A program made the translations under genes and the position numbers. From the IMG/VR virus record IMGVR_UViG_3300037322_000284: a stretch of DNA of 64,000 bases; one strand, 5' to 3'. This document shows, in pieces, positions 15,587-43,600 of the stretch. A model generated the notes under the pieces. It worked only from the letters and a program-made list of their open reading frames with translations, had not been told where the DNA came from and ran no database searches. The DNA is from an uncultured virus (IMG/VR IMGVR_UViG_3300037322_000284). Lineage: Duplodnaviria > Heunggongvirae > Uroviricota > Caudoviricetes. Numbering within the stretch: position 1 is the stretch's first letter; every line of letters starts with the position of its first letter.

Positions 15587-17590
15587 ATGAACTTAGATAA
15601 AGTTTTTGTGTCAGATATTGAAAGTATTGGGTATTTAGATGAGTTAAAATCATTTGAAGACTTACACGTACTATCTTGCTGCTATCTAAATTCTGAGGGT
15701 AAATGGGATATAAAATCCACTAAAGAAAAATCTGCAATACAGACATTACTAGGCAACCCAAACAATACAGTGTTATTTCATAATGGAGTTTGCTATGATA
15801 AACCAGCATTAGAAATAATGGGAATAAAGTTTAAAGCCGAAATTATTGACACTTTAGTTTTAAGTCAATATTTATATAGTGAAAGAGATAAACACGGTTT
15901 AGAATCTTGGGGTGATTTTTTTAATGTACCCAAGCCAAAAATTACGGACTGGAAAAATTTAAGCTATGATGAATATCGAGTTAGGTGTGAGGAGGATTGT
16001 AAAATCAATACAAATCTTTGGGTAATGATACTTACCTATCTCAGAGAGTTGTATGAAACAGATGAGGAAATTATAAACTTGATTAAATACCTCAATCATA
16101 AAGCCTATATGCTCCATTTGCAAGATAGAAATCCTATTCTAATAGATGTGCCTCAATGTGAAAAAAACTTAGCTTATTTAGAGAGTATTATAAAAGAAAA
16201 AGAAGATGAGTTAAATAGTATAATGCCTAAAACACCAATTAAATCTAAAAGAATAAAACCTAAAAAACTATATAATAAAGACGGTTCTTTATCAGAAGTA
16301 GCGAAAAAATGGAAAATGATAACTGATAAGATAAATCAACCTATTGAATACGATGGTAAAGTTGAAGTTATAACTGGATGGGTTGAGCCTAACTGCCAAT
16401 CTAGTACACAAATGAAACGGTTTTTACTCGATAGTGGCTGGATACCAACTATGTTTAAAGATGGGGCTAATGGAAAAGTTGCACAATTAAGAGATGATGA
16501 TAAAAATTTATGCCCTAATATTGAAAAACTAATAGAGCAGAAACCACAATTAGAATCTCTTAATGGACTTAGTAGGGCACAACATAGGGCAGGCTATTTA
16601 AAATCTATGTTAAAACATGTTGATGAAAACGGGTATGCAAAAGCTTGGGCTCATGCCTTTACTCGAACGTTACGTTTGAAGCATGTAGCTCCATTTGTAA
16701 ATTTACCTAAGCCTAATACACAATATGGTGAATTAGTTAGGAGCGTTATGATTGCACCCAAAGGTTATGTTTGTTTTGGAGCAGATCTAAGTAGTATTGA
16801 AGATAAGTGTAAACAGATTTCAATATTCCAATTAGATAGACCTTATGTAGAATCTATGAATTCTAAAGGATGGGACGCACACCTGACACTTGGATTAAAG
16901 GCGGGGATGTTTACAGAAGATGAAGTGCAATTTTATAAATGGTATAATAATAAAGAAAAAGAAGAAAATATATATACTTGCCCCGATTCTTTAATAGACC
17001 TTACGGAGGAAGATATGTTAGAAACTTTTCACGTATTAAGTAAGAAAAGAAGTACAAGTAAGACTGCAAATTATGCCTTGACATACGGTTGTGGTGTTGC
17101 TAAACTTATGGAATCTACTGAATTACCTAGAAAAGATGCAGAAAAATTACACAAGGGATACCATGATATAAATTGGAGCGTTAAGAAATTTGCAGAAACA
17201 AGAATAGTAAAAACAATAATTGGTAAAAATTGGTTAAGAGTTGACAAAAAGGCGGGTGGTTTGATAGAAGTAAATGAAACTAAGTGGATTTGGAATGAGT
17301 ATAGTAAACTATGGCTTTTCTTAAAAAACGATAAAGACCGTTTCGCTGCATGTAATTCTAATTTTGGAGTTAAAGTTTTTGATGTATGGAGTTGGTTCTT
17401 GATTCAAGGTGGTATAAAGTTTTCATACCAAGCTCACGACGAACAGTTTTGGTATTGCCCTGAGAGTGAGGTAGATAATCATATAAAAATTATAGAATTT
17501 GCAATTAAAAAAACTAATGATGTATTTAATCCCCCTATACCTTTAGAATGTGATTATAAGATTGGTGAAAATTATTCGAAAGTACACTAG
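15587..17590 (+). CDS. DNA polymerase family A with 3'-5' exonuclease
   Basis: ExoI DIES, ExoII HNGVCYD, ExoIII RCEED; motif A GADLSSIE, motif B R...KTANYALTYG, motif C AHDE. Confidence 0.93.
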   Translation: MNLDKVFVSDIESIGYLDELKSFEDLHVLSCCYLNSEGKWDIKSTKEKSAIQTLLGNPNNTVLFHNGVCYDKPALEIMGIKFKAEIIDTLVLSQYLYSERDKHGLESWGDFFNVPKPKITDWKNLSYDEYRVRCEEDCKINTNLWVMILTYLRELYETDEEIINLIKYLNHKAYMLHLQDRNPILIDVPQCEKNLAYLESIIKEKEDELNSIMPKTPIKSKRIKPKKLYNKDGSLSEVAKKWKMITDKINQPIEYDGKVEVITGWVEPNCQSSTQMKRFLLDSGWIPTMFKDGANGKVAQLRDDDKNLCPNIEKLIEQKPQLESLNGLSRAQHRAGYLKSMLKHVDENGYAKAWAHAFTRTLRLKHVAPFVNLPKPNTQYGELVRSVMIAPKGYVCFGADLSSIEDKCKQISIFQLDRPYVESMNSKGWDAHLTLGLKAGMFTEDEVQFYKWYNNKEKEENIYTCPDSLIDLTEEDMLETFHVLSKKRSTSKTANYALTYGCGVAKLMESTELPRKDAEKLHKGYHDINWSVKKFAETRIVKTIIGKNWLRVDKKAGGLIEVNETKWIWNEYSKLWLFLKNDKDRFAACNSNFGVKVFDVWSWFLIQGGIKFSYQAHDEQFWYCPESEVDNHIKIIEFAIKKTNDVFNPPIPLECDYKIGENYSKVH

Positions 17591-18005: not shown

Positions 18006-18252
18006 CAATGCTGAAAACGAGGCATCGAACAAAACCATTGTTATGATGCGTAATTTTATGAAAACATCAAGGCATATCGTAAATATTGACGGAGGTAGAA
18101 CTGCTTACATAAACGGTTATTTTGAGTTTAGAAGTTACTTTAAAAAAAGTAAATCTACTTATTATCGATGGATTAAAGAATTAGAAAAAATAGATGAAGA
18201 TTTTTGGTTCGACAGACGAGTTTCTGGACTTCTATTTTACTATGTATCATAA
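17989..18252 (+). CDS. hypothetical protein, probable fixed (domesticated) gene cassette
   Basis: Core bracketed by GTTATGATGCGTA (18040) and TATGTATCATAAT (ends 18253). Confidence 0.55.
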   Translation: MKIEFNNAENEASNKTIVMMRNFMKTSRHIVNIDGGRTAYINGYFEFRSYFKKSKSTYYRWIKELEKIDEDFWFDRRVSGLLFYYVS

Positions 18253-18464
18253 TGTACCGCCACTTTACTAACTGCTATATGTAAACAACAATACAATTTA
18301 AAACTATGACAACATTAATAATACTTATTCTCATACTGGTTGTGGAGAATAGATTTAGCCCCAGACTTTCTTACGTAAAAGCTTCTAATATGCTCTTACT
18401 TTACTACACACATGGCACAACAAGAAAATATTTAATTCTCTGGAAAGAGACAAAATTTTAAAAA

Positions 18465-21016: not shown

Positions 21017-21125
21017 CCCCAATCAAGAACACCCTTTAGCTTGAAATTGTTAAACAGGTATTTGGAAGGAGGAAGGGAATTCAATATTTAGAAAATGGAT
21101 TTACAGAATTAATTTGCCCTAAATG

Positions 21126-21251
21126 TACGTTCCGCATATCTTGTGCTGTTACCGATGTGACACAAAATAATAATTTAATTAAACGGGATAATCCCAAACA
21201 CAAAACAATAACAACCAAAGCCTAATACGGTAATAGCTCAAATATGCTGTT
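21126..21251. repeat. attC-like hairpin 1 (degenerate left end)
   Basis: TAC-GTTCC-GCATATCTTGTGCTGTTACCG (21134-54) pairs with CGGTAATAGCTCAAATATGC-T-GTT (21228-51). Confidence 0.7.
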
Positions 21252-21281
21252 ATCACTGCGGTTTTTTATCCCACAACACAA

Positions 21282-21473
21282 ATGAAAACATTTAAAAAAA
21301 TTATCGGATACTTAATTGTATCACTTTTCGCAATAATGATAATATGCTGTTTTGCTTATAATATCTATCAAACTGGTTGGTACTTCATGCTACCCCTAGT
21401 TATTATTTTAGCTTTAGTTGGATTACTTATTTTTGGACTTCGTCTTTTAAGCGACAACGACCAAGCTGAGTGA
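21282..21473 (+). CDS. Cassette 1: small two-TM membrane protein
   Basis: 63 aa with two hydrophobic helices; stop codon lies inside AGTGACAAC. Confidence 0.75.
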   Translation: MKTFKKIIGYLIVSLFAIMIICCFAYNIYQTGWYFMLPLVIILALVGLLIFGLRLLSDNDQAE

Positions 21474-21474
21474 C

Positions 21475-21598
21475 AACGTCCGAGTGCTTGGCGAAGAAGC
21501 GGACTTATGAAAATTATATTTTCAGAAAACAATAAACGCAATTAGAATTACAAAACTTGAATTATAAACTGAACCCGCTTTTTTGCCAAACACTTGTT
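21475..21598. repeat. attC-like hairpin 2
   Basis: AAC-GTCC-GAGTGCTTGGCGAAGAAGCGG (21482-502) pairs with CCGCTTTTTTGCCAAACACTT-GTT (21575-98). Confidence 0.85.
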
Positions 21599-21632
21599 AT
21601 GTGATGAACGGGTTTTAACAACTAAATTAATT

Positions 21633-21935
21633 ATGAAACAATTAGCATCTATTAGAACAAATTTGAGCTTTTCAGTTGAAACAGGAACTACTGAATTAAA
21701 ACCGACAATTGAAATAGTATTGTTGACTTATAAGCCTGAATATTCATTTAATGCAAAAAGTGAAATTCAGCAAAAAAGAGCATTAGACGAAACAAGATTG
21801 ATATTAAGTACTGAAGGACTAAATCAAATGATTGCAAACTTACAATTATCTCTTGCTCAACTTCAACAATATGAACAAATGGGCGTTGCTTTAAATAACG
21901 TTATCAAGGCAATGAAAGTTGATGAAAAACCGTAA
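21633..21935 (+). CDS. Cassette 2: hypothetical protein (100 aa)
   Basis: Probable start MKQLA after A-rich leader, inside the cassette boundaries. Confidence 0.75.
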   Translation: MKQLASIRTNLSFSVETGTTELKPTIEIVLLTYKPEYSFNAKSEIQQKRALDETRLILSTEGLNQMIANLQLSLAQLQQYEQMGVALNNVIKAMKVDEKP

Positions 21936-21951
21936 ATATAGTTTATCACAT

Positions 21952-22037
21952 AACGGTTGGGTGTATGAGAAGGTTTGCTTAGATGAACTTTCAAATTACC
22001 ACAAATGTTGACAGCAAACTTTCTTATACACCTTGTT
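21952..22037. repeat. attC-like hairpin 3
   Basis: AAC-GGTT-GGGTGTATGAGAAGGTTTGCT (21959-79) pairs with AGCAAACTTTCTTATACACCT-T-GTT (22013-37). Confidence 0.85.
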
Positions 22038-22078
22038 ATATTTAGGTTTGTTTTTGTTTTACCGATTAAAAAAATGAT

Positions 22079-22450
22079 ATGAAAATAGAAAAAGTACATA
22101 ACAAAATTAGATATACACTATCTAACGAAAATCTTAAAGTTAGTGATGAAGTATTTCCAATAGCAAGAGGAAGATGTTTAGATGATGATGATGGATGGAT
22201 ATTACACGATTTAGATTTTCGTGATTTTATGAGTGGTTTTCCTGATGACCCACATATTATAATGGACTTGAATTATGACAATGGGAAACAAGGAAAGGCA
22301 TATCAAGTAAGAACTGATAATGGATATTCACCGATTGAGTGTTACTACAAAATTGTCAAAATAGAAGAAAAGATTAAAGTTAAGGAAAATATATTTGGTG
22401 GTTCTTACGAGTGGGTTGAAATAAAAAACTCAAAACAAAAACAAACTTGA
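22079..22450 (+). CDS. Cassette 3: hypothetical protein (123 aa)
   Basis: Bracketed by a 26-bp inverted repeat (23/26). Confidence 0.75.
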   Translation: MKIEKVHNKIRYTLSNENLKVSDEVFPIARGRCLDDDDGWILHDLDFRDFMSGFPDDPHIIMDLNYDNGKQGKAYQVRTDNGYSPIECYYKIVKIEEKIKVKENIFGGSYEWVEIKNSKQKQT

Positions 22451-22490
22451 ATATAGCTAATATTTGTGTGAATAATCTATAACCATTAAC
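22451..22490. other. Candidate attI-like primary recombination site
   Basis: Cassette 3 repeat ends at ATATAGC (22457) with no hairpin after it; CTATAAC at 22477-83; 51 bp upstream of the integrase. Confidence 0.45.
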
Positions 22491-22508
22491 AAAATCAACA
22501 TATAAGCC

Positions 22509-23312
22509 ATGAATATTCCTAAATACCTCGAAATGTATCGGAAAGACTTAATTTTAAAAAATTACTCTCACAACACGATAAAAAACTATGTCTATCAAGC
22601 AGATTTATTTTTAAGACATCAAGAAAAAGAGTTTACAGAACCATCAAAAGTAAACGAACAAGCAATTAAAAATTGGTTATTGCAATTCAAAACCAGAAAT
22701 GCAATGTGTCATTCATTATCTGCTTTAAAGTTGTTTTATAAAATGACAATTAAGCAACCAAGGAAGTTTCGTTATATTGAATACCCTCGCTCAGAAAAGA
22801 AGCTTCCAAGAATAATTGATAAGTCTTTTCTACTTGATTGTATTTCTAAAATAACAAACACTAAACACAAGGCTGTAATATCACTAGCATATTCAACAGG
22901 GATGAGAGTTTCAGAAGTTTGTAATTTAAAAATATCTGGCATTGACAGTAAAAGAATGGTAATCTCTATTAGACAGTCTAAAGGTAGAAAAGATAGAATC
23001 GTCGCTTTATCCGAGAAGATTTTAGTAATTCTCAGAGTTTATTTTTTAGAGTACAAACCTAAAGAATATTTATTTAATGGTCAATTTACGCAACAATATT
23101 CAACTACAAGTTGCAATCAAATTGTTAAAAAATACTTAGGTAAAGAATTTCACTTTCATCTTTTAAGGCACAGTAACGCCACAGCATTATTAGAAGCGGG
23201 TACGGATTTAAGGATTATTCAGAAACATCTTGGGCACTCAAGCTCAAAAACAACAGAAATATACACACACGTAAGCACTAATATTTTGCAATCAATGTCT
23301 TTACCCATTTAA
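22509..23312 (+). CDS. Tyrosine recombinase/integrase (SAM-like N-domain plus catalytic domain), no IntI I2 insertion
   Basis: YSHNTIKNY; YSTGMRVSE (R), KGRKDR (K), HLLRHS (HxxR), LGHSS (H), TEIYTH (Y). Confidence 0.95.
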   Translation: MNIPKYLEMYRKDLILKNYSHNTIKNYVYQADLFLRHQEKEFTEPSKVNEQAIKNWLLQFKTRNAMCHSLSALKLFYKMTIKQPRKFRYIEYPRSEKKLPRIIDKSFLLDCISKITNTKHKAVISLAYSTGMRVSEVCNLKISGIDSKRMVISIRQSKGRKDRIVALSEKILVILRVYFLEYKPKEYLFNGQFTQQYSTTSCNQIVKKYLGKEFHFHLLRHSNATALLEAGTDLRIIQKHLGHSSSKTTEIYTHVSTNILQSMSLPI

Positions 23313-40600: not shown

Positions 40601-43600
40601 ATTTTTTGGCTTTATTTCCTAAATATACTTGTGGTTGTGAAAACCTCTCAAGTCCGCCTGAAATAAAAGTAATCATTCCCTTACCATTGTAGCTATACCT
40701 TACACCTCCTATTTGATGGATACCTATTTGTACATCTTCTCCGAACTCTTTCTTAAATACTTCTTTATTATACTGTATTGATTTTTCATTATCAATTTTT
40801 ATTGCGGAAAATTCGCTATCATCTGCTCTTGTTACAGCATAAGCTTGTGCACCAATCATTATAATATCAGTAGGTTCTAAGACTACAACATTACCATTAC
40901 TATCCACAGTTTCAGAATTATACTCTAAATCTCTTGATATGATATTATATGGTAATTGGGTAGAATCATAATTTTCATCTTTAATGTATCCCTCAATAAC
41001 ACTTAAAGTATATGGTGTAGGTAGTCTAAATGTTGTTGCGCCACTTAAAGATGCTTCTTTTAATGCTTCTCTTAATAGTCTTTTTTCCCATTCTTTTTGA
41101 GATGCTATAAATTGTTTTTCTTGTGGTGAAAAAATATTATCTATGTGTTTTTGCTCTCTAACTTTTTCATCTTTTATAAAAGCGTCTACTTCTTTTTCGT
41201 TGTTATTGTACTTTTTAACAAAATCAAAAACATTAATACTTCCTTTGAGATAAGCATCTATTACTTGATTTTTTACATTTAACGCTTCTATCTGTTCAGT
41301 AACTTCATTGAAGTCTTTATTATTTCTAATTTCACTTAAAAGTCTGTCATATTTCCCTATCTTCTTGTTATTTTCGGTTTTTATTTCCGACAAACTCTCT
41401 TTTGATGGGTGTTTTTCTCTAAAGTTATTAGGTGTAAAACCCTGTTTGGTAAAAAACTCTTCTCTCTTTTTAGTAAACTCTTTTGTCGTAAAATATGCTG
41501 ATTTTTCTTTGATTAATAAATCCTTTGCTTTGTATTTTTGGTAGAAATCACTTTGTGCTTCAGCGACATAAAATATATCTCCATCTTGCCATACACGAAT
41601 ATGAGCAAACATTCCTTTGTTTATACTTATATTAACTCCTTTATTTTGTAAATATTCTAATCTTTTCTTTTCTTTTTCATCCAAAGATGCTATGGCTCTT
41701 TTCCTAGTTAAGTCTGACATTTCTTCCATTTCTTTTTCAGATAATCCTTCATAAGACTCATACTCATTTATCCAAACATCGACAGCTTCTTTTGTACCCG
41801 CAGTTCCTACAAACTGATAAATATTATTATCATTTGCTCCTTGTGCTTGATAATTTTCTTCAACTGCTACCCAAGTGTTACCATTAAGTTGTTTAGAAAT
41901 ATATTTAATATCTTTTCTTCCACTCGCTTTAAATGCTTCACTAAGATGTCCTGTTATTGCGTGCTCAATCGGAGTGTTTAATATAATAGTGTTAGCCGTT
42001 CCGTATTTTCCATCACCTAAATTATCCATTCCATAGTTGGCATAACTTGAAGTGAATACTCTTTCTAGTGGCATTATATTAGCTCTAACTGTTGCTTCTA
42101 ATTCGTCATAACTTATTTTCTTTTGTCCCACATAATTTTCTTCAATTATGTTTTTTATTAACTCTTTTTCAATTTGTTTTATTCCTGTTTGATTTAAAGA
42201 ATTTAAAACAGTTAGTGGGTTTATCTGTTTGCCTTGTAATTTTACAAATTCAGGTCTGCTAAAAACAGCTAATGTTAAAGGTAGTCTATCTGCTTCTCTA
42301 GTAAAATACTGTTGTGCTTGACTGCCTTTTATATTGTTTCCTTGTAATAAACTTACTCCCATTGCAGTAGCATACTCACCTAAGTTTAGGTTAGCAATTT
42401 GTTGAGGAGTCATATTAGTAATCCCTAACATTTTACCGATAGTTTCCCAAAAGTCCGAAAGCCATTGCATCAATGGGGATTTAGCTTTTTGTTCATCCAT
42501 CATTTCTCCTGCTTTTCTTGAAATAGTCTCTGTTAAAATTTCTTCTAATAGTGCTTCTCCTTTTAAGTTGGGTTGGGTCTCTTTAATAAATGCGATTATA
42601 TCTTTTATTTCGCTGTTTGGGTTATTGATTTCCTCTGAAACAAGTTCAATTCCTTTATCGTATGTAGCTTTATTAGTAGTTTTAAGTGTTGATAGTAGTA
42701 AATGTCCATATTCATGTACAAAAGTTTCATTATTGGCTAAATCCGAGTTAAAGTAAACATCGTTATTAAATACAAATCCTAAAGTAGTCATCTGAACATT
42801 ATCTGCTCCAAGCTCTTCTAGTTTTGCATTAATTTCCGCTGTTGACATTTGGAAAACATTTTCTGCAAGTCCGCTCTCTTTTAGTCTGTCTATTACTTCT
42901 TGGTCTGCTGATTTAGTTGTTTGTCTTGTAGTATCATTAAAAATATCATCTGTAAATATACTAATAACTTCATTTTTATTTATGCCCTCCTTATTTTGTA
43001 ATAAATTTAGTAGGTCTTCATAACGATATTCAGAGTTCTTAAAGTTATCTCTTAATTTTAAAGCTTGTTCAACAACTCTAGCATCAATCTCTCCTTGTAG
43101 TAAGTCTAATTGGGATATTAATAAATCATTATTATTTATATCTGCTATTAGTTTTCTTGCTGAAAGTATGACTTTTTTCTCGTTACTAGTTAAATTATTT
43201 AAAGGGTAGTTATTAATGATGCTAACTGTTTCCAATGCTAACAACTCTTGCGATTTTGTTATAAAAATTGCATTTTTTATAATTGTATATGGGTTGCCTC
43301 CTCTAGCAAATCCTTCAACGTTTTGGATGTAGTGTTGGAATTCGTGGGCAGTAATACTTGTGATATCTTTTCCATCAGGATTGTCTGTTCGTATGAACAT
43401 TGTAGCCTCTCCCTCGGATGTTGTGTTAATTGCTCCATTTGACCCTCTATATCTTTCTGAGATGTCCAAATTTGTTTTGTCATAATATATTATTTTTAAA
43501 TTTTTAGACTCTGGGTACAATTGAAATAGGATATTACCCTCCCCTAAAACTTCTACTAGACGTTGTTCTTTGTTTAATGTTATGTTACTTAAATTAAATT

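Follow-up and report, generated by a model that had tools for sequence, protein, structure and literature searches.

The DNA between positions 21126 and 23312 of a 64,000-nucleotide stretch from an uncultured virus (IMG/VR record IMGVR_UViG_3300037322_000284; Caudoviricetes), in the following called the window, is very likely a phage-borne, integron-like cassette array with an Xer-like recombinase, in which the inverted repeats private to each cassette represent the two halves of that cassette's outer (R) arm. The array consists of three head-to-tail units (21129–21477, 21478–21954 and 21955–22457), each with one small gene behind an attC-like hairpin, and is located 5′ of an attI-like docking site and the gene of a short Xer-like tyrosine recombinase. 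All three cassette genes read toward the docking site and lie on the strand that is predicted to fold (+). The anatomy of the array, the pairing statistics of the repeats and the breakpoints between related arrays were observed directly and carry this interpretation.

Each unit starts with an imperfect hairpin on the + strand. Site H0 of unit 1 (21126–21251) displays TAC instead of AAC, followed by a 5-nt spacer, an imperfect stem (21134–21247) and T-GTT. Site H1 of unit 2 (21475–21598) is composed of AAC, the spacer GTCC(G), a 20-bp imperfect stem, a 62-nt loop and GTT. Site H2 of unit 3 (21952–22037), which was also recorded as inverted repeat I4, contains AAC, the spacer GGTT(G), a 20-bp stem with two G·T pairs, a 33-nt loop and T-GTT. 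Folding calculations for single-stranded DNA yielded −18.9 kcal/mol (z −3.06) for the + strand of H1 and −14.8 kcal/mol (z −1.86) for its − strand; the corresponding values for H2 were −16.8 kcal/mol (z −4.00) and −12.5 kcal/mol (z −2.25). Downstream of cassette 3, up to the recombinase gene, the sequence showed no structure (fold z 0.17). A covariance model (R1) built from 60 sites, all of them from contigs other than the window, gave only three matches over the 64 kb at E values up to 10, all on the + strand: H1 with 88.4 bits (E 3e-15), H2 with 56.1 bits (E 6e-9) and H0 with 51.7 bits (E 4.5e-8; 21121–21257). Its consensus structure comprises 22 pairs and no bulges, the underlying stem search being ungapped. 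Hairpins of 95–97% identity were also observed between unrelated cassettes on both sides, namely H2 of the window and positions 903–988 of contig L075, and positions 1676–1799 of L013 and 808–931 of L023. Judged from these alignments, hairpin families seem to be shared or homogenised apart from their cargo.

A previous reading of the window from its sequence alone (the sequence-only reading) had claimed that each cassette gene carries its own inverted repeats, in which the bases after each GTT complement those before the next AAC and not the other flank of the same hairpin. The repeat pairs of all three cassettes were found where it had placed them. In cassette 1, GTTATCACT at 21249–57 and AGTGACAAC at 21469–77 match at 8/9 positions; the pair of cassette 2 (21596–21609 and 21941–54) matches at 13/14 and that of cassette 3 (22035–60 and 22432–57) at 23/26, its core being inverted repeat I1 (24 nt, 92% complementary). 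The pairing scheme was also borne out. At positions 4–15 beyond the triplets, a cassette's own ends matched at 8/12 (cassette 1), 10/12 (cassette 2) and 10/12 (cassette 3) positions, whereas the two flanks of the same hairpin matched at only 2/12 (H0), 1/12 (H1) and 4/12 (H2).

As chance background we used the 11,061 pairs of GTT and AAC that lie 150–600 nt apart in the window. At least 10/11 matches at positions 4–14 were reached by three of these pairs, among them cassette 2. At positions 4–26, cassette 3 showed 21/23 matches and no background pair exceeded 15/23. The pair of cassette 1 is weak by itself, as 5/6 matches were attained by 89 of the 11,061 pairs. In cassette 1, the left private arm extends over 21249–21263 (+; GTTATCACTGCGGTT) and the right arm over 21463–21477 (+), and position 11 shows C against T in place of the usual G against T. 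The arms of cassette 2 (21596–21610 and 21940–21954, both +) and cassette 3 (22035–22060 and 22432–22457, both +) follow the rule of G against T at this position. Right arms ending in AAC, as the sequence-only reading had stated for all cassettes, are present in cassettes 1 and 2, the latter ending in TAAC; the right arm of cassette 3, which forms the junction with the docking site, ends in AGC, where its relatives have AAC. With 26 nt the arm of cassette 3 is unusually long, the longest arm in related loci being 22 nt (at most 3 mismatches) and the mode 15 nt.

The same organization was found in relatives of the window. A scan of viral contigs provided 80 loci with recombinases 49–88% identical to that of the window. 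In the window and these loci, a stem detector that accepts only ungapped stems framed by AAC and GTT, with equal scores for G·T and T·G, reported 156 sites on the recombinase strand, 151 of them upstream of the recombinase. At least one upstream site was present in 52 of the 80 loci, and 21 of the 28 loci without such a site have less than 250 nt of upstream sequence. Site length varied from 68 to 204 nt with a median of 123 nt, and spacing was asymmetric, mostly with 5 nt after AAC and 1–2 nt before GTT. Several conserved residues are not imposed by the detector: a T before AAC, a G after it (82/82 five-nt spacers) and an A after GTT (139/151).

Private pairing is a property of the family. 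In 98 cassettes, the own ends, that is the right flank of one site and the left flank of the next, matched on average at 6.64 of 10 positions and at 8 or more positions in 49 cases. The two flanks of the same site (n = 151) matched at 3.68 of 10 positions, never reaching 8, and random flank pairs (n = 4,862) matched at 3.64, the share at 8 or more being 0.00. The match frequency of own ends was 0.74–0.89 at positions 4–9, 0.61 at position 10, 0.03 at position 11, about 0.6 at positions 12–15 and 0.13–0.30 beyond position 15, and the bases at positions 6–9 were near evenly mixed. The family norm is a pair of 15-nt arms starting with GTTA-N6-G-N4 and ending with N4-T-N6-TAAC, with G against T at position 11 in 102 of 143 cassettes. 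The arms are therefore longer than the 7-bp R box of integrons, as had been proposed from the window. A further proposal, that arm length falls with distance from the integrase and may thereby reflect insertion age, found no counterpart in the family: Spearman's rho was −0.007 for matches (p = 0.94) and 0.002 for length (n = 143), and the mean number of matches out of 12 at ranks 1–6 from the recombinase was 8.47, 7.59, 7.62, 8.00, 9.62 and 8.57. A homologue of cassette 2 in contig L176 (83% amino acid identity) carries different arms, GTTACTGGCT[G]TAC and ...GTATAGCCAGTAAC, which again pair with each other and retain G against T at position 11; the difference reads as compensatory change. Comparison of the arms suggests that their sequence is free to vary between cassettes as long as each pair remains self-complementary with a G·T at position 11.

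The inner stems of the 151 sites contain 2,523 Watson-Crick pairs, 292 G·T pairs with G in the 5′ arm, 43 T·G, 44 C·A and 6 A·C pairs. Because the detector treats G·T and T·G alike, the bias of 292 to 43 is real. On the opposite strand the G·T pairs of the stems become A·C mismatches. In 89 of 94 phage cassettes, the longest open reading frame (ORF) lies on the folding strand and reads toward the docking site.

The recombinase gene (22509–23312, +) codes for a 267-amino-acid Xer-like tyrosine recombinase (Pfam PF00589, 1e-38). Its best curated models were archaeal XerA (NF040815), XerC and XerD, but with 173 of 220 bits required for XerA, 149 of 335 for XerC and 144 of 330 for XerD it remained below their cut-offs; classification as a chromosome-dimer resolvase (XerC, XerD or XerA) was rejected, since the curated equivalog cut-offs were missed. 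The integron-integrase models were not reached either: TIGR02249 gave 131 bits in two stretches (cut-off 265) and NF011946 gave 85 bits (cut-off 435). An end-to-end alignment with the XerA structure 5hxy (9e-32) demonstrated clear kinship at the fold level. In contrast to this, the Vibrio IntIA structure 2a3v aligned in two pieces, residues 10–177 and 212–256, between which the recombinase has 34 amino acids where IntIA has 82; we take the IntI-specific insertion to lie in this unaligned interval of IntIA. R133, K158, H217, R220, H243 and Y252, presumably the catalytic residues, are invariant across 12 relatives.

Between the array and the recombinase gene lie the docking site and the gene's leader (22458–22508, +). 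The sequence begins with TAATATTTGTG..., a variant of the family consensus TACTATATGTA, and the junction in the window reads ...ATAGC|TAATATTTGTG. As in integrons, the docking site adjoins the 5′ end of the recombinase gene. All loci with readable upstream sequence were alignable from TAAC|TACTATATGTA onward, about 55 nt before the start codon, and unrelated upstream of it. Three contigs (L001, L003 and L005) have the docking-site TAAC as their very first bases; assembly breaks at this point are expected if populations differ in the adjoining cassette. A near-perfect copy of the docking-site consensus (TAACTGCTATATGTA, 1/15 mismatch) was observed at 18266–18306 of the window, 4.2 kb upstream of the recombinase. 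It directly follows an ORF ending at 18252 and is followed 22 nt later by a 51-amino-acid ORF that is not a recombinase; model R1 found no hairpin site near it. This copy may be a relic or a second docking site.

Evidence for mobility was obtained from cultured phages. The Freya phages of Polaribacter encode a recombinase 33% identical to that of the window, and Freya_1, 5, 6, 8, 9 and 10 are 99.5–100% identical on both sides of an array whose contents differ. The isolates differ by whole units, and every breakpoint is located at ...AAC|. In Freya_1, 5 and 9, three different cassette ends are joined to one docking sequence, AAC|ACCCCTATAAC. Because in Freya_10 these terminal cassette ends each precede hairpins of further units, the arrays are nested, that of Freya_1 in 5, 5 in 9 and 9 in 10, and have grown at the recombinase end. 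In Freya_8, one internal segment bounded AAC| to AAC| is missing, and Freya_6 carries a different unit at the same point. As model R1 barely detects Freya sites (one match, 18.6 bits), the Freya evidence consists of the stem detector results and the breakpoints. In Danklef_1 to 5, also Polaribacter phages (MT732458–MT732462), the recombinase match covers only residues 121–267 and overlaps features annotated as 'hypothetical protein | integrase'; the match lies at different positions in the five isolates (41039 to 42030), which may indicate that the gene is split and the array variable.

The cassettes of the window show corresponding breakpoints. Positions 21475–21970, which run from the AAC before H1 through gene 2 and its closing AAC into the start of the next hairpin, are 99.6% identical in contig L174, with another cassette end before them and another hairpin behind. 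A metagenome relative (X1 record 8) shares the docking-site variant and the recombinase gene of the window (8 differences in 1,244 nt) and has another cassette end, ...CCGCTAA|C, joined at 22457; a second metagenome contig (X3, record 23) ends at the same position, and a third (X2 record 10) contains 21234–21477 and diverges directly after its AAC. At the far end of the array, the backbone homology with a further metagenome relative (X1 record 1) stops at 21125, three bases before the degenerate TAC of H0. The Freya breakpoints, the L174 unit and the junction at 22457 all lie at AAC, in agreement with the proposed crossover in the AAC/GTT triplets, the exact bond being hidden by shared letters. 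The breakpoints at this triplet between near-identical phages and contigs also support the view that the cassettes are independent units. Similar hairpins from different loci formed 60 pairs, of which 9 shared the right flank (at least 11/12 positions) and none the left (maximum 8). For recent events, the alignments indicate that the moving unit is a hairpin with its downstream gene, bounded AAC|...AAC| and not GTT...AAC.

These breakpoints bear on two alternative explanations. One regards each gene as a miniature transposon with terminal inverted repeats (GTTA.../...TAAC), the hairpins being unrelated spacers. The private inverted repeats at the gene ends do resemble transposon ends. However, the polymorphic units of the Freya phages and L174 run from AAC| to AAC| including the hairpin and not from repeat to repeat, the array contains no transposase gene, and all units share one orientation and adjoin a recombinase with a conserved docking site; we consider a transposon origin scarcely credible. 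For the same reason, units bounded AAC| to AAC| with the hairpin and not by inverted repeats, assignment to a transposon or miniature inverted-repeat transposable element was rejected. The other explanation assumes exchange of double-stranded modules of the Xer/dif type or homologous recombination between similar hairpins, in either case without folded single strands. It would fit an Xer-like enzyme without an IntI domain, the occurrence of one hairpin family with different cassettes and the older comparisons, in which homology breaks on both sides of hairpins. On the other hand, the hairpins brought together by the Freya_8 deletion, exactly at AAC|, are dissimilar, which speaks against homologous recombination, and neither the one-sided G·T bias (292 versus 43) nor the G·T at position 11 would have a role in duplex DNA. 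Moreover, the sites share one orientation, unlike the duplex Xer sites of pdif modules, which alternate in orientation. This second explanation is improbable. Identification as pdif-type modules was rejected on the orientation of the three sites of the window and of 151 of 156 sites overall, which lie in one orientation upstream of the recombinase.

Several findings weigh against the interpretation as an integron-like array. The invariance of AAC and GTT in the 151 sites follows from the construction of the detector. The recombinase lacks the IntI-specific segment, a domain said to serve the specialised pathway of classical integrases, and it may also, or only, be a lysogeny integrase. Homology breaks not only at AAC but, in several metagenome contigs, also after GTTAT; the hairpins of L013 and L023, 97% identical, differ in both flanks, and the cassette 2 homologue of L176 is accompanied by an unrelated hairpin. 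As a consequence, the rule that a hairpin travels with its downstream gene fails over long times, and in such older comparisons either both triplets serve as crossover points or the hairpin families have been homogenised. Homologues of genes 2 or 3 were found in five loci. In three of these (L173, L175 and L177), they lack cassette boundaries and are ordinary phage genes (62–86% amino acid identity) without hairpins or arms, including in L173 a 62% relative of the cassette 3 protein outside any cassette. These gene families thus also exist as ordinary phage genes, which are possible sources of cassettes. Finally, no excision joints were found in the Logan contigs of salt-lake metagenome runs, a search confined to assembled contigs.

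The window array is also partly worn: H0 has TAC instead of AAC, the arms of cassette 1 match at 8/12 positions and lack the G·T, and cassette 3 ends in AGC. These features, together with the missing joints in the salt-lake contigs compared, would be expected if the system were real in the family and the window a frozen relic, its repeats being fossils of past insertions. Against this, the recombinase ORF is intact and its presumed catalytic residues are invariant, a metagenome relative joins a different cassette to the same docking-site variant at 22457, and cassettes 1, 2 and 3 were all found in other contexts in contigs with the same habitat label. A relic is conceivable but on balance unlikely.

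Arrays of the same site family were also observed in Bacteroidota, at locus L134 and other chromosomal loci. A scan of one genome per species returned mostly Bacteroidota recombinases 40–45% identical to that of the window. The two bacterial recombinases examined (L154 and L121) are 344 and 380 amino acids long, have an N-terminal extension and score above the NF040815 cut-off. At least two sites on the strand opposite to the recombinase were found in 21 bacterial loci, and the sites lie downstream of the recombinase in the 13 loci examined for position. Model R1 confirmed the polarity of the sites in L121, L145, L149 and L154 with matches of up to 89.9 bits. Own ends of the bacterial cassettes match at 8.51 of 12 positions versus 4.19, with G against T at position 11 in 28 of 35. 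In 10 of 12 bacterial loci, the right arm of the first cassette adjoins an attI-like sequence, TAAC|TAGTATATATG, 44–140 nt after the recombinase stop codon.

The bacterial arrays help to judge whether the hairpins and arms act in messenger RNA, as stabilisers, processing sites or terminators, and not in DNA recombination. For the phage arrays such a role would fit, as their sense strand folds better and a G·T pair would be G·U in RNA. In bacterial arrays, however, genes are antisense to the folding (G·T) strand in 30 of 32 cassettes, in contrast to the phage arrays, where they are sense in 89 of 94. The wobble bias is thus tied to the site, whichever way the genes are transcribed, which makes a purely messenger RNA role unlikely. 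Furthermore, no terminator-like pattern was detected at the hairpins on the + strand, and an Rfam scan returned no family at threshold, only two sub-threshold snoRNA-like chance matches. A function in RNA would also leave the presence/absence breakpoints exactly at AAC| unexplained. Overall, we regard it as very improbable.

For the integron-like array, the following mechanism can be proposed. By analogy with classical integrons, we infer that the DNA folds as a single strand, that it is bound and passes through a circular intermediate, and that the recombinase encoded beside the array is the enzyme. Within the array, the two flanks of a hairpin belong to different cassettes and only TAAC(G) and (T)GTTA would pair. 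The full arm would close once a cassette's own ends meet, as in an excised circle. Alternatively, it could close on single-stranded DNA within the array, the gene being looped out. The split outer stem of an integron-like site, as put forward in the sequence-only reading, agrees with our data; its additional claim that circularisation is the only way to extend the stem is probably too narrow, as looping-out could do so as well. The + strand would fold, its mismatches being G·T wobbles, and the 15-bp private arm and the inner stem of about 20 bp would flank the unpaired spacer and thereby mimic a duplex core site. Two recombinase monomers would bind the R arm and the inner stem, and a hairpin together with its downstream gene would be inserted or excised by exchange with the docking site or another site, the strands crossing at AA|C.

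A broader proposal, which we consider evenly balanced, is that Bacteroidota phages carry a second kind of integron independent of IntI. A minimal Xer-like recombinase would recognise a fully paired private arm of 15 bp, and the fixed G·T together with the inner wobbles would select the folding strand, replacing extrahelical bases and the extra domain. The arms would let cassettes close in single-stranded DNA, so that anti-restriction and other accessory genes could be swapped during infection.

The cargo of the window is small. The ORF of cassette 1 (21282–21473, +) codes for a hydrophobic protein of 63 amino acids, that of cassette 2 (21633–21935, +) for 100 amino acids from its ATG and that of cassette 3 (22079–22450, +) for 123 amino acids; none of the three proteins had a match in Pfam, NCBIfam or PHROGs. 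In related arrays, we scanned the 97 longest of 233 ORFs of at least 50 amino acids. Pfam matches were obtained for 22 of the 97: 14 DNA methyltransferases (five PF00145, eight PF01555 and one PF02086), two Mom proteins, one PAPS-reductase-like protein, two YopX proteins and three others. Examples of methyltransferase and Mom cargo, the methyltransferases being orphans, were observed, among other loci, in L012 (1815–3140 and 3201–3932) and L016 (1984–2592). The methyltransferases and Mom-type enzymes probably counter host restriction. Cargo is highly diverse: when the cassettes of the 80 contigs were compared at the nucleotide level, few were shared (26 pair matches). The window itself is AT-rich (about 31% G+C) and phage-like in gene content, encoding a family A DNA polymerase (15587–17590), a primase-like protein, a 'DNA transfer protein' and a virion structural protein of 3,107 amino acids (PHROGs). 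A nucleotide search against GenBank phages gave no DNA match to the region.

In many phage contigs, and also in cultured phages, a short recombinase without an IntI domain adjoins the docking site of a cassette array and may thus provide integron-like gene swapping without the classical integron enzyme. The array gives phages a modular store of accessory genes, and the private 15-bp arms and their fixed wobble suggest a concrete recognition rule. With the cultured Freya phages and their Polaribacter host, both the circle and the strand rule are directly testable. Integron recombination has been described, in the accessible text of one report, as dependent on the IntI-specific domain (PMC4792948), and the accessible text of another states that integrons are nearly absent from Bacteroidetes (PMC9024848). 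A literature search (abstracts and main-text passages) yielded neither a phage Xer-like recombinase described together with attI and cassettes nor any mention of private extended arms. Bartlau et al. took the Freya integrase as a sign of a possible temperate lifestyle, and the words 'integron', 'variable' and 'hairpin' occur 0 times in the accessible main text (PMC8776804). The DUF1874 motif, as far as the available text describes it, is a different, multistem candidate attC (PMC5737381).

The closest published precedent is the work of Qi et al. (2023), who in the accessible text reported phage-borne rows of attC-type sites with DNA methyltransferase cargo, including one Polaribacter phage example. 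In their assays, five of the six sites were substrates of IntI1, which recombined them at G|TT and worked better on bottom than on top strands (PMC9892861). These rows and their cargo resemble the arrays described here. In contrast, a cognate phage recombinase, a docking site or private 15-bp arms are not described in that text, in which 'Xer' occurs 0 times. P12002L was not among the recombinase matches at E 1e-15 or better. The chromosomal arrays of Bacteroidota share with the phage arrays the site family, the private arms, the position-11 rule and an attI-like sequence. They differ in that the array lies downstream of a longer recombinase (344–380 amino acids) and the genes are antisense, as in classical integrons. 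Xer-type enzymes without an IntI domain also recombine folded single-stranded phage DNA in the case of XerCD and the attP site of the CTX phage. Here, too, a hairpin mimics a duplex site for an Xer-type enzyme, but the enzyme pair is encoded by the host, integration occurs singly at dif and there is no cassette array.

The comparison with classical integrons (IntI, attI and attC; class 1 and Vibrio cholerae IntIA, 2a3v) reveals likeness in the overall plan. The 5′ end of the recombinase gene adjoins the docking site, the array runs in one direction, imperfect hairpins with a variable loop are bounded by AAC...GTT, and the breakpoints lie at the triplet. In classical integrons, as here, a cassette's own ends match because the following cassette completes the outer box of each site. 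The classical crossover is located at G|TTRRRY, according to the accessible text of Qi et al. (PMC9892861). In other respects, the phage arrays are unlike classical integrons. Their recombinase has no IntI-specific segment and scores below the IntI cut-offs. The outer arm measures 15 bp with a fixed G·T instead of 7 bp, and the spacing is asymmetric, with 5 nt on one side and 1–2 nt on the other. Mismatches are wobbles without evident extrahelical bases, as far as an ungapped stem search can reveal them. Moreover, the phage genes lie on the folding strand and read toward the docking site, not away from attI. The system works like an integron, yet it fails the defining IntI test.

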